In this document: positions 9,457-14,690 of the stretch, in pieces
Position numbering within the stretch: the first letter of the stretch is position 1
How the letters are laid out: every line of letters begins with the position of its first letter
Source: Candidatus Nealsonbacteria bacterium
Lineage (GTDB): Bacteria; Patescibacteriota; Minisyncoccia; Minisyncoccales; JAUWAW01
Direction of reading: 5' to 3'
Assembly (NCBI GenBank): GCA_030601865.1
Contig: JAUWAW010000001.1
Location: 46,433 to 110,432 of the forward strand
Length of the DNA stretch: 64,000 nt
Program-made: the position numbers and the translations under genes
Notes under the pieces: generated by a model
Databases searched by the model: none
What the model saw: only the letters and a program-made list of their open reading frames with translations
What the model was told of the DNA's origin: nothing

Positions 9457-10914
9457 TTAAAGAAGTTGCTTTAATATTTGATTAACCAGTCCCGGGCTGG
9501 CTTTTCCTTTTGTTTGAGCCATAACTTTGCCCACCAGGAATTGTAAGGCGTTTTCTTTTCCCTTTTTATAATCCTCAACTGGTTTTGGGTTTTTATTAAT
9601 AACTTCTTTTATTATTTTTTCAATTTTTTTCTCATCAGTCATTTGTTGCCAGCCCTTTTCTTCAATAATATGGGAAGGGTCTCCTCCAGTGCCAAACATC
9701 TCTTTGAGAACGGTCTTAGCGATTTTGCTTGAAATCTCACCTTTGTAAATCAAAATAATAAACTCAGCAAAATTCTCGGGAGTGATGAGAAAATCCTCGC
9801 CGACAATAGAGGCCCCCTTCAAAAGACCTTGTAGGTCAGTAACAATATAGTTGACAGCCAATTGGGTGAACTTTTTAGTTTGCTTAATCTTTTCAATCTT
9901 TGCCCAGTTGTCCAGTTCAGACATAACTTTCTCAAGATATTCGCCCAAATTTTTATTAAAAACAAAAATTTCAATTTCCTCATCTTTGAGCGCGTATTCT
10001 CTTTTGAAACGTTCTCTACGGGACTGAGGCAATTCAGGAATTTCTGCTTTAATTTCATTGATAAAATCTTCTTCAAGATGAAGCGGAGGAAGGTTAGGTT
10101 CTGGAGCATGCAGGTCTTCCGTGGAAAACATACCACCTCCTTTTTTTCTCTGAGAAAAAGTCATTCCTTTTTCATCGTCCCATCCTCTTGTTTCGGGAAG
10201 CACTTTTTTACCCTTTTTCAAGAGTTCTCTTTGTCTTTCAATCTCAAATTCTGTTGCTTTTTCTGCTGCCCGGAAAGAATTTAAATTTTTAATCTCTACC
10301 TTTGTTCCTAATTTTTTACTGCCTTTCAGCGCCATTGAGATATTTACCTCCACCCTCATCTGACCTTTTTCCATATTAGCTTCAGAGACATTTAAGTATC
10401 TTAAGAGTATTTGCAATTCTTGGGCGAATTTCCTTGCTTCTCTTGCTGAACTAATATCGGGCTCTGTCACTAATTCTATAAGGGGTATCCCAGCTCGATT
10501 AAAATTAACTAAAGAATAATCTTCTTTATGGATTAACGTCCCCACATCTTCTTCTAAATGGAGTTCATGGATTCGTATTTTCTTAGCATCAATTTTTAAA
10601 AAACCATTCTTGCCCAAAGGAGAAATATCTTTACTTATTTGGTATCCTTTAGGTAAATCTGGATAGAAATAAAGCTTGCGAAAGAATTCGGACTTTCTAA
10701 CAATCTCACAATTCAGAGCTAGAGCAGTTTTAACTATCTTTTTCACCGTTTCTTTATTGAGAACCGGAAGCACTCCTGGGTGACCCATACAAATCGGACA
10801 AATATTGACATTGGCATGACTTTCGTTAACGTTATTCAGGCAAGAACAAAACATTTTGCTCTTGGTATTAAGTTCTATATGTATTTCTAAGCCAATTGTT
10901 GGTTGATAGTTCAT
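9457..10914 (-). CDS. gatB: Asp/Glu-tRNA amidotransferase subunit B
   Basis: N-terminus MNYQPTIGLEIHIELNTKSKMFCSC and a GatB/YqeY C-terminal domain. Confidence 0.9.
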   Translation of the reverse strand: MNYQPTIGLEIHIELNTKSKMFCSCLNNVNESHANVNICPICMGHPGVLPVLNKETVKKIVKTALALNCEIVRKSEFFRKLYFYPDLPKGYQISKDISPLGKNGFLKIDAKKIRIHELHLEEDVGTLIHKEDYSLVNFNRAGIPLIELVTEPDISSAREARKFAQELQILLRYLNVSEANMEKGQMRVEVNISMALKGSKKLGTKVEIKNLNSFRAAEKATEFEIERQRELLKKGKKVLPETRGWDDEKGMTFSQRKKGGGMFSTEDLHAPEPNLPPLHLEEDFINEIKAEIPELPQSRRERFKREYALKDEEIEIFVFNKNLGEYLEKVMSELDNWAKIEKIKQTKKFTQLAVNYIVTDLQGLLKGASIVGEDFLITPENFAEFIILIYKGEISSKIAKTVLKEMFGTGGDPSHIIEEKGWQQMTDEKKIEKIIKEVINKNPKPVEDYKKGKENALQFLVGKVMAQTKGKASPGLVNQILKQLL

Positions 10915-11561
10915 GTTTCCTTTATTATTTCAACACCGGAGCTAGTCCCGATAATATCAGCGCCGGCTTTGACCATGGCTTTGAGGTCTTTTAAGCTTTT
11001 AATTTTTCCTGCTGCTTTGATTAAAAGCCCTGGCACTGCTTTTTTCATAATGGCTAAGTGTCTGGCTTTTTCTTTTAGTTCTCTGTGTTCTAAAGGGTCT
11101 TTAAAGGTGGCTGTTTTAACGCAAATAGCGCCTGCTTTTTTAACAATTTGTGAGGCCTTTTTTATTTCTTCTTCAGTTAAATAGCCCGAACCAATAATCA
11201 CTTTAGTGGACAGAATTTTACAAAGCCCTTTTAGATCTTTCAAAACTTTGTCGTATCTTTCGTACTTCAAGTCAACAATATTCATCACCACATCTAATTC
11301 ATCAGCCCCGTCATTCTTTGCTTTTTGGCACATTTTTACTCTCTTTTGATGCGCGCTTTGACCCATTGGCGGGTCAATTAAAACAACAATTTTAATATCG
11401 GTATCTTTCAACTCCTTCTTCACCAACCCCACCCTTTCTGGATTAATACAAACACTCCGAAAACCGTATTTTTTAGCTTCCTGGCAAGTTTTTTTTATTG
11501 CTTTAGCCGTCGCCAACCGTTTTATATTCGTATGGTCAATAAGTTTTGCTATGTTTCTCAT
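10911..11561 (-). CDS. deoC: Deoxyribose-phosphate aldolase
   Basis: DeoC-like TIM-barrel motifs (GFRSVCINP, LIKAAGKIKSL..AGADIIGTSSG), with the Schiff-base lysine region present. Confidence 0.75.
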   Translation of the reverse strand: MRNIAKLIDHTNIKRLATAKAIKKTCQEAKKYGFRSVCINPERVGLVKKELKDTDIKIVVLIDPPMGQSAHQKRVKMCQKAKNDGADELDVVMNIVDLKYERYDKVLKDLKGLCKILSTKVIIGSGYLTEEEIKKASQIVKKAGAICVKTATFKDPLEHRELKEKARHLAIMKKAVPGLLIKAAGKIKSLKDLKAMVKAGADIIGTSSGVEIIKET

Positions 11562-12340
11562 GTTAAATTAAACTTGCTTTTCGCCTCTTCATACATATCT
11601 TTATAGATATGCATACTCACAGAAAAATGAGTATATGTTCCCACTGCCACGTCGAGCTCGTCTGCCATATGTTTTTGCAAAGCAGTAAAGGCGTAAGCGT
11701 TCTCAGGCCAGGCATTGTATAAATCATTGGTCTTCATCACCACAAACATATGCAGTTTTCCGTCCACCAATTGAGGATAGGCCAAAAGCAGACAGGGAGA
11801 AGATGTATCCTCTCTTTTGGGACCAAACTTCATTAAATCTCTAAAAGGAATCCAGGTGTGCATCACCACTGTTCGACGAGTTGGATCTTTTTTTAAGATT
11901 TGAATTGCTTTATCTACCTGGTCAATACGTTGAACCACGCACTTGCCATCAGGAGAAATCTTCTTTACTGCTGTCGCCAATTCCTCATCAGAATCTGTAA
12001 CACTCGGCAACCAAGCCCTTACTTTACAGTCTGGATAACAACGAAGCCGAGAATAATAAGTGTAATCAAAACTGTTTTCTTGCTCTTTTCCTGAACCGTG
12101 TATTAATTTCTTGGCATACTCATCAGCTTGTTCCCGGTTGGCATTAGCCTTTGAAGAAAGCCTGGGCTCGGAAAAAGGTTCTGAAACCTTTATCATTAAA
12201 GGTAGGTCTTTTGTTTCTATTTTGTATTCCGGGGCCTGGACGTACCTATCATGACCTTGCTTCATTACTAAGACACAGGCCTTTTCCCAGGCCTCGCCTA
12301 ACGTTTTTGCTTCAATTATTGTTGTATTGTACATAAGCAC
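11558..12340 (-). CDS. Thymidylate synthase family protein (archaeal-type ThyA-like)
   Basis: RRTVVMHTWIP aligns with the ThyA SRRIIVSAWNP motif. SPCLLLAY matches the catalytic PCH cysteine region, and WPENAYAF matches the Asn-containing motif (PFNIASY) that distinguishes dUMP- from dCMP-specific enzymes. Overall the match to bacterial ThyA is divergent. Confidence 0.6.
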   Translation of the reverse strand: MLMYNTTIIEAKTLGEAWEKACVLVMKQGHDRYVQAPEYKIETKDLPLMIKVSEPFSEPRLSSKANANREQADEYAKKLIHGSGKEQENSFDYTYYSRLRCYPDCKVRAWLPSVTDSDEELATAVKKISPDGKCVVQRIDQVDKAIQILKKDPTRRTVVMHTWIPFRDLMKFGPKREDTSSPCLLLAYPQLVDGKLHMFVVMKTNDLYNAWPENAYAFTALQKHMADELDVAVGTYTHFSVSMHIYKDMYEEAKSKFNLT

Positions 12341-12365
12341 TTTGCTAAGCTTTTAATTTTTTACT

Positions 12366-13250
12366 TTAGTCGTGCCAGCCGTATTCGTCGGCTGACTCGT
12401 ATTCGTCGGCTGACTCTTGGTTTTCTTTCTCGACCTTTTTGATGAACAGCTTCTGGTCCTGTTCATAATCTAAGCCATTCTTGAGAGCTATTTCAGCCTT
12501 CTGAAGCTCCCGGCCCAAATACATAGCATGTTCCTTGGTCTGTTGGAAATCACCGATTAAGTCAAGATTGACTATTGTTTTACAAATACGTTCTGCTGAA
12601 TCTCCTGTTATTTTACATTTTAATTTATTGTCTTGGAAATGTTCAACGATTATCTTATTCCTTTCTTTATTAATTAAAACAACAAAGAATCCTTTTGGGT
12701 CAGGTATCCAGTCAGGGCAGGAATGAGCTTCTATTTCTGCTACTTTCTCAATTTTCAAAACCTTTGGAGAAAACTCGCTGGGTTTGGTTTGCAAAAGCTT
12801 ATCAATCACTTCTTCAATTTTCTTACCGTCCCTCTCACCTACCATATTGACAGGTGAAATCTGTTTTCTGAATTGTTCAATCAGTTCTTTATCAATACCT
12901 TTTAGATAGGACATATTGCCTTTGGCTCCGATAATCATTTTATCATTGTCTATACCGCTTTTTACAAGACATTCTATTGCTTGAGAGACAAAATGACCTT
13001 TGGAAATTTTCCCGCAAAGAATCAAATACCTGATATTGGGATTGGAAACTATGTTTTGGATTATTTTTTCTATGCCGATGTTCTCTGTAACACATTTACC
13101 CCAGATTGCTACTTTCTGAGGACTGATTTTTATTTCATCAATACTAGCATTAGTGCAAACAGCCACTGGCGAAATTTTATTGCCCACCTCGTATCTTCCC
13201 TGAACTGGCGGCCAATTTTGCAGCTTGCTTTCCATATTGATAAGTCGCAC
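12366..13250 (-). CDS. MtrA-like (tetrahydromethanopterin S-methyltransferase subunit A fold) protein with extra C-terminal domain and acidic ESADEY repeats
   Basis: PVAVCTNAS...AIWGKCVTENIGIEKIIQNIVSNPNIRYLILCGKISKGHFVSQAI matches my recollection of the MtrA/PF04208 signature, including the His in a GH motif. The annotated start is a GTG at 13250; an ATG at 13235 (MESKLQ) is an alternative. The C-terminal ESADEYESADEY comes from an 18-bp tandem repeat. Confidence 0.55.
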   Translation of the reverse strand: MRLINMESKLQNWPPVQGRYEVGNKISPVAVCTNASIDEIKISPQKVAIWGKCVTENIGIEKIIQNIVSNPNIRYLILCGKISKGHFVSQAIECLVKSGIDNDKMIIGAKGNMSYLKGIDKELIEQFRKQISPVNMVGERDGKKIEEVIDKLLQTKPSEFSPKVLKIEKVAEIEAHSCPDWIPDPKGFFVVLINKERNKIIVEHFQDNKLKCKITGDSAERICKTIVNLDLIGDFQQTKEHAMYLGRELQKAEIALKNGLDYEQDQKLFIKKVEKENQESADEYESADEYGWHD

Positions 13251-13864
13251 TAACAGTGCGACGGGTCTGTCGCACTGTTAGTGCGACAATTAGGCCTAAA
13301 TTCTTGGTTTATTTTGCTGGCTTGAGGAGATTCCTGTTTATCGTATTTCTGAGCTTTTTTTTCTGAATAGGAAACCTCGCAAGGACCAGAAAGCGTCTCA
13401 AAAGTCAAGGCGCAAACCCGCATCCCGGCATATAAAATAATGGGCATAATTCCCAAATTCCCCAATTCCATCACTGCTTTTCCCTGCCAACCAGGGTCAA
13501 AGCGAGCGGCGGTTGAATGAACTATCATTCCCAACCTACCCAAAGAACTTCTACCATCCAGTCTTGCCATTATATCATTGGGTAAAATTATTTCTTCTTT
13601 TGTTATAGCAATCACAAATTCTTTTGATTGCAAGATAAAAGGAGCTCCATCTTCTATTTTTACTTCCTCCATTAATTTTTCGAAATTGATATCTCTTTTA
13701 AGGTCTAAATAGGGATATTGAGAGGGCTTAAAAGTTTTAAAAATATTGCCTAAATGTAAATCTAAGGAACAAGGTCCTAATTGCTTTTCAAAATCGGGCT
13801 CAGGCTTGATTGTGATTTTTCCTTCCCTAATATATTTTTTTATGTCTTTGTCTGAGAGAATCAT
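13250..13864 (-). CDS. dcd: dCTP deaminase (Dcd/dUTPase superfamily) with palindrome-encoded C-terminal extension
   Basis: MILSDKDIKKYIREGKITIKPEP...LGPCSLDLHLGN matches the Dcd N-terminus. The last 13 aa or so (..RPNCRTNSATDPSHC) are encoded by the palindrome at 13244..13287. Confidence 0.8.
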   Translation of the reverse strand: MILSDKDIKKYIREGKITIKPEPDFEKQLGPCSLDLHLGNIFKTFKPSQYPYLDLKRDINFEKLMEEVKIEDGAPFILQSKEFVIAITKEEIILPNDIMARLDGRSSLGRLGMIVHSTAARFDPGWQGKAVMELGNLGIMPIILYAGMRVCALTFETLSGPCEVSYSEKKAQKYDKQESPQASKINQEFRPNCRTNSATDPSHC

Positions 13865-14012
13865 TGATGTTTAAGACAGAAAAATTAGTCGTTGTTTTAT
13901 CATAGCACATTTTTGGAAATAAAAAAAATGGAAGGGGCCTTGTTAGACAAGACACCTTCTTGTGAATTGTGGATATTCTCAGATCATTCCTCCTTTTCAC
14001 TACCTCCTCTCA

Positions 14013-14690
14013 TTAGATAACCGGGCATTGGCATTTCTCTTTGAGACAGGTCCGGCATTTTCCAGGATAGGTTTGCCAAGTGACTTCGGAAAGAGATATC
14101 TGCAGTTTATTGCAAGCAGCAACAAGCCAGGCAAAAGCATCAGCCAATTCGGCCTCCAATTCTGCTCTCGGGCCTAATCTAAAGGCTCGGCTTATTTCCC
14201 CTATCTCTTCAAAAAGATGAAACCATATTTGGACTTGGAATTTTATTTTATTCACTCGTCCATAAATCCTTTCAAACATCTGCTGCCAACCGTCAAGGAT
14301 AAAGGGCTTTTGTTTCATTCTGTTCCTGTATTTCTCCAATAGTTCTCTATCGTCTTTGTATTTCAGTTCTTGAGAAATACAAGTACAGTTCTTTTCCTGT
14401 AAACAGTAAGGGCAGACACTCGGATATTTGTGCCAGACGGCATTCTCCAAATCAATCCCTGTTGGCTCGCAAGTATTGCAAAAGGCCAATAGCCAACCGA
14501 AAACATCCGGGATATTCTTTACCACACTTTCTCTGTCTTCCTTGCGCAGATGTTCAGCCAGTTCAGCCATCTCCTCAATAACATGAAGCAAGATATCAGA
14601 GGGACTGTAAATTTCGTCATTCCTTGCTCCATAAATTGAAAAAAATAACCCTTGCCATTGTCTAATACTTTGCGGTTTTTCCATCTCCAC
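14013..14690 (-). CDS. Tandem MazG-like all-alpha NTP pyrophosphohydrolase (two domains, each followed by a Cys4 motif)
   Basis: Two repeats of an EExxEL...D helix motif (IEEMAELAEHLRKEDRE and FEEIGEISRAF...ELEAELADAF), each followed by YPxxCxxCLxEKxCxC. Candidate dimeric dUTPase-like enzyme. Confidence 0.65.
   Translation of the reverse strand: MEMEKPQSIRQWQGLFFSIYGARNDEIYSPSDILLHVIEEMAELAEHLRKEDRESVVKNIPDVFGWLLAFCNTCEPTGIDLENAVWHKYPSVCPYCLQEKNCTCISQELKYKDDRELLEKYRNRMKQKPFILDGWQQMFERIYGRVNKIKFQVQIWFHLFEEIGEISRAFRLGPRAELEAELADAFAWLVAACNKLQISLSEVTWQTYPGKCRTCLKEKCQCPVI

Follow-up and report, generated by a model that had tools for sequence, protein, structure and literature searches.

A methanogen-type thymidylate synthase paired with an MtrA/DUF4346 protein in Patescibacteria and DPANN: a possible corrinoid-dependent route to dTMP

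The locus described here raises the question why a non-methanogenic bacterium with a tiny genome should encode a relative of MtrA, a protein of the membrane methyl-H4MPT:coenzyme M methyltransferase MtrA-H, immediately next to a thymidylate synthase. When the window, by which we mean the whole 64 kb stretch of DNA that was analysed, was searched with family profiles, five pyrimidine-deoxynucleotide genes were found at the positions where a preliminary description had placed them, all on the minus strand and all matching their families, and its reading of a pyrimidine deoxynucleotide operon stands. The gene order is MazG-Dcd-MtrA-like-ThyA-DeoC; that description had rightly put the MtrA-like gene between dcd and thyA, but the order in its title, with dcd first, has to be corrected. 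The features are as follows.

14013..14690, minus strand: tandem MazG-family NTP pyrophosphohydrolase, 225 aa (PF03819 in two stretches, E=2.9e-15)
13250..13864, minus strand: dCTP deaminase Dcd, 204 aa (TIGR02274, 189 bits, cut-off 92.8; PF22769, E=1.3e-44)
12366..13250, minus strand: soluble corrinoid-type protein of the MtrA family, 294 aa as listed, ending in a DUF4346 domain and a conserved tail (Pfam, AF2, Foldseek)
12747..13223, minus strand: MtrA domain of this protein, residues 10-168 (PF04208, E=8.4e-46)
12456..12701, minus strand: DUF4346 ('PterinBD') domain, residues 184-265 (PF14251, E=3.2e-23)
12369..12389, minus strand: C-terminal tail DEYGWHD-COOH, which follows a variable charged linker (alignment of homologues)
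11558..12340, minus strand: divergent methanogen-type ThyA, 260 aa as listed (PF00303, 50 bits, cut-off 24)
11930..12040, minus strand: subfamily-specific ThyA insert, about residues 101-137, with C105 and C134 invariant (alignments)
10911..11561, minus strand: deoxyribose-phosphate aldolase DeoC, 216 aa (TIGR00126, 163 bits, cut-off 117)

The reading frame of dcd ends in a stop codon that overlaps the start listed for the MtrA-like gene, and deoC overlaps thyA and gatB by 4 nt each; in many Patescibacteria loci DeoC comes after thyA. Comparison with homologues suggests that the true starts of the MtrA-like and ThyA-like proteins are ATG 13235 (MESKLQNWPP) and ATG 12334 (MYNTTII), respectively. 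The MazG gene lies 148 nt upstream of dcd, its only PDB relative is the uncharacterised MazG-like protein SSO3215 (E=8e-4), and a homologue was absent from all of the approximately 170 related loci searched (L001-L088, L090-L169); it is lineage-specific and outside the conserved module, and the dUTPase role suggested for it is putative. Within the window there were no folA, thyX or folate-pathway genes and no mtrB-H genes.

When the neighbourhoods of related ThyA-like genes were examined, MtrA and/or DUF4346 was found directly upstream in 72 of 80 metagenomic loci. In seven of the other eight the sequence ends there and only L166 truly lacks the partner, which makes the count 72 of 73 informative loci. 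Similarly, ThyA-like lies within 3 kb of MtrA-DUF4346 in 22 of 24 Patescibacteria and DPANN genome loci, and all six look-ups (6/6) agreed. The same proteins are also found fused, as Dcd-MtrA-DUF4346 in some Patescibacteria (P0105-P0120, L002), as MtrA-DUF4346-ThyA (P0250, P0278, P0340), and as MtrA-ThyA-DUF4346 (P0297, P0306). Others are present in a Woesearchaeota archaeon and a Wolfebacteria bacterium, of which the second has MtrA and ThyA domains only. The pairing is not due to chance. Synteny and fusions show that the ThyA-like enzyme acts jointly with the MtrA/DUF4346 protein encoded just upstream, and on the same grounds the two are probably physically bound. The earlier proposal, in which the MtrA-like protein serves an archaeal-type ThyA as its partner in function on a C1 route to dTMP not described before, is strongly backed by the locus counts and by several independent fusions, and we found no published description of such a system in the literature.

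The assignment to the MtrA family, which had been made from a signature (VAVCT..GKCVTENIGIEKII..NIRYLILCGK..GH), passed both the profile test and the structure test. The AF2 model (mean pLDDT 83.5) superimposed in Foldseek on the cobalamin-bound MtrA structure 5LAA with a TM of 0.82 and 41% identity. The signature is real and it holds T55-E56-N57 and G85-H86 (His86 codon, 12993-12995), of which E56 and H86 align in phmmer with Glu54 and His84 of 5LAA. In MtrA, His84 is the cobalt ligand and Glu54 is its partner (PMC4915002). Among 41 homologues H86 and G85 were invariant and E56 nearly so. The window protein resembles MtrA of the MtrA-H complex (5LAA, 5L8X) in family (PF04208), in its Rossmann-like fold and in sequence (about 40% identity), but it scores under the TIGR01111 equivalog cut-off (142 vs 249), has no predicted membrane segment and hence no anchor, carries DUF4346 and a tail, and its proposed acceptor is ThyA and not MtrE/CoM.

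The second domain and the conserved tail had not been mentioned before. DUF4346 is present with MtrA in every architecture; its fold consists of three strands and two helices, D184, H241, Y244, E248, A252 and Q264 are invariant across all architectures with E253 nearly so, and the fold search gave no match that would assign a role. It may cap or stabilise the corrinoid, serve for docking or provide a pterin site. The tail ends in an invariant residue, D294, and its W292 is nearly invariant. The tail is retained in Dcd fusions and missing where ThyA is fused directly (P0250, P0278), and it is a candidate docking peptide.

In the ThyA-like protein, TIGR03283, the methanogen type, was the best-scoring family (E=8e-40, 136.5 bits), though under the cut-off of 174.6, and the score for TIGR03284 was 32.8, far under its cut-off of 108. 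The protein shares its fold family with canonical ThyA of E. coli and L. casei (PF00303, TIGR03284) and aligns confidently with it over the C-terminal half only. The catalytic cysteine, E. coli C146, is C183 (codon 11792-11794), the partner-subunit arginine pair R126/R127 is R155/R156, the pterin-binding D169 is D206, N177, which recognises dUMP, is N214, and Y94 and Y209 are Y95 and Y246, respectively; R166 is replaced by K203. The catalytic Cys and the dUMP-type Asn, which the preliminary description had proposed to inspect, are both retained. Unlike canonical ThyA, the enzyme lacks an equivalent of W80 and the last approximately 50 residues that form the E. coli folate lid, contains an insert of 34 extra residues, two of them invariant cysteines, and almost never occurs without its MtrA/DUF4346 partner. 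The absence of these folate-closing elements suggests that it depends on a partner for its chemistry. It shares with methanogen-type ThyA (the M. jannaschii MJ0757 family) its short length without a C-terminal lid, and a short domain of that type is itself fused between MtrA and DUF4346 in P0297. It differs from that type in having K-T-N-D in place of R-S-H-D and two insertions, one of which contains the Cys pair; this insert is not in the short methanogen type, and the fused proteins P0250 and P0278 have neither C105 nor C134. The C1 cofactor of methanogen-type ThyA is unresolved (PMC9012536), as is that of the window enzyme.

What the partner may do is suggested by its archaeal relatives. 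In 14 metagenomic archaeal loci mtrA, mtrH, DUF4346 and thyA follow in a row, and in L006 and L089 they do so with MtrA and MtrH fused; where the ORFs were read (L156, L161, L164, L165) they are four contiguous or overlapping genes. SHMT and MTHFR are also present in all seven (7/7) of these loci that extend far enough and in L089, and no methionine synthase was among the annotated genes of these clusters. In other archaea (L082, L084) the operon is mtrA-mtrH-core metE-DUF4346, which is built alike and from which we conclude that DUF4346 belongs to methyl-transfer systems. Core MetE has no folate domain, just as ThyA-like has no W80 and no lid. A parallel to these operons is the predicted supply of methyl groups from MtrA to MesA, a core methionine synthase (PMC7857596). 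The logic is similar to that of MetH and of MesA/MesB (predicted to receive methyl from MtrA or CoFeSP), in which a pterin-binding methyltransferase (MtrH) passes the methyl to a corrinoid protein and then to an acceptor that lacks its own folate-binding parts. In the module, however, the methyl would go to a carbon (C5 of dUMP) and not to a zinc-activated thiol, no reactivation module was identified, and the window variant lacks MtrH. The claim of a non-folate C1 donor in a host with little folate metabolism finds no support, because SHMT, MTHFR and MtrH adjoin the module in archaea and glyA and folD are present in about 80% of CPR genomes (PMC11974145); the C1 unit therefore probably still comes, in the end, from a pterin, and it is the corrinoid step that seems to be new.

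The best explanation is that the window module represents the Patescibacteria form of a thymidylate synthase system in two parts. Homology and context show that Dcd supplies the deoxyuridine nucleotide and that dUMP is bound and activated by ThyA-like through Cys183; in relatives the dTMP product is taken onward by the thymidylate kinase Tmk, whose gene follows thyA in many loci. We infer that a corrinoid is bound, that the two proteins form a complex and that a methyl group is passed to dUMP, and put forward tentatively, at a little less than an even chance, that C1 reaches ThyA as methyl-Co(III) on a corrinoid subunit, so that no dihydrofolate forms. The MtrA domain would bind a salvaged corrinoid His-on, as MtrA does, and this corrinoid would alternate between Co(I) and methyl-Co(III); the methyl would pass to C5 of the Cys-activated dUMP enolate and beta-elimination would then free dTMP. 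The methylene would be reduced to methyl on the pterin ahead of the transfer, the step that archaeal SHMT, MTHFR and MtrH would serve exactly, and hence the tetrahydropterin would never be oxidised to dihydropterin and no DHFR would be needed. If true, this would be an undescribed B12-dependent thymidylate synthesis across two huge groups of ultra-small microbes, Patescibacteria and DPANN. ThyX is similar in that dTMP formation leaves tetrahydrofolate unoxidised and DHFR is unneeded (PMC9012536), and DHFR-TS in that the synthase is fused to, or encoded together with, the protein by which its cofactor problem is solved, but the module proteins have no homology to either and the proposed carrier is a corrinoid and not flavin or NADPH. 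The module is often flanked by candidate B12-uptake genes or a B12-dependent ribonucleotide reductase: directly upstream of dcd in many Patescibacteria loci are a gene for DUF4430, which is the C-terminal domain of transcobalamin (PMC4350170), and one for DUF6580, a membrane protein with five segments, and the adenosylcobalamin-dependent NrdJ adjoins the module in L004 and L030.

Several observations count against methyl-Co(III) as the donor. No ThyA-family enzyme is known to move a methyl group from methyl-Co(III) to a carbon nucleophile. No MtrH or MTHFR was found near the window module or any type I locus, where Co(I) would therefore have to be methylated by another component, no cobalamin riboswitch was found, the MtrA motif GAIPF/Y-x-EN is partly altered and reads GNMSYLKG in the window protein, and the His is missing from some distant MtrA-DUF4346 proteins. 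Asp206 is invariant in the ThyA-like family, which fits ordinary methylene-tetrahydropterin chemistry in the ThyA site. Such chemistry, with the MtrA/DUF4346 protein replacing DHFR by re-reducing dihydropterin or acting as a corrinoid reductant of the exocyclic methylene intermediate, is the main, though unlikely, alternative. It agrees with the retention of Asp206, Asn214, Tyr95 and the Arg pair as in canonical ThyA, with the Pfam name of DUF4346 and with the fact that no MtrH is required in the window. Thymidylate synthase is classically fused to or co-operonic with DHFR, and a gene fused to thyA is therefore a natural candidate for a DHFR replacement; folA is missing from about 45% of CPR genomes (PMC11974145). 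Against it, MtrA and DUF4346 also occur with MtrH and core methionine synthase, where no dihydropterin arises, the archaeal thyA operons contain MtrH and have MTHFR close by, both of them methyl-level enzymes, and the only role known for the MtrA fold is cobalamin binding in the His-on mode (PMC4915002); moreover, no nicotinamide or flavin family was matched in the profile searches and there is no linked electron-donor gene.

It is rather improbable that the partner is a non-catalytic B12-sensing or scaffolding subunit through which the activities of Dcd and ThyA would be coupled to the supply of cobalamin, for instance to keep step with a B12-dependent ribonucleotide reductase. That either Dcd or ThyA can be the fusion partner, that NrdJ adjoins two loci, that the tail motif resembles a docking peptide and that the partner diverges faster (58-69% identity) than ThyA-like (80-88%) would all agree with such a role, but its occurrence with MtrH, MTHFR and core MetE speaks for catalysis of methyl transfer, the His-Glu dyad of cobalt chemistry is strictly retained, and a ThyA without folate-closing elements suggests that the chemistry depends on the partner.

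The flow of C1 could also be the reverse, from the MtrA corrinoid through MtrH to tetrahydropterin, with MTHFR oxidising it to methylene for a conventional ThyA and SHMT. In favour of this, MtgA and other relatives of MtrH carry methyl groups from Co(III) to THF, in the L006 protein the MtrH part is matched by the MtgA model as well, and SHMT and MTHFR adjoin the archaeal operons. This direction is marginally less probable still: no cluster contains a substrate:corrinoid methyltransferase to load the corrinoid, SHMT already yields methylene-THF straight from serine, window-type systems have neither MtrH nor MTHFR and yet MtrA-DUF4346 stays beside or fused to ThyA, and the dihydrofolate problem would be left unsolved.

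Finally, although hydroxymethylases exist within the ThyA family and CMP 5-hydroxymethylase was among the weak PDB matches, the hydroxymethyl-dUMP pathway offered earlier as an alternative, or any other base modification to a hypermodified nucleotide, finds no support and is very improbable, since Asn214 is as for dUMP and not the Asp that cytosine-specific enzymes typically have, a thymidylate kinase gene comes after thyA in many loci, the neighbours are core genes (secE, nusG, L11, gatB) in cellular chromosomes and not in a phage context, and the ThyA-like sequence shows the very strong conservation that an essential enzyme would be expected to have.

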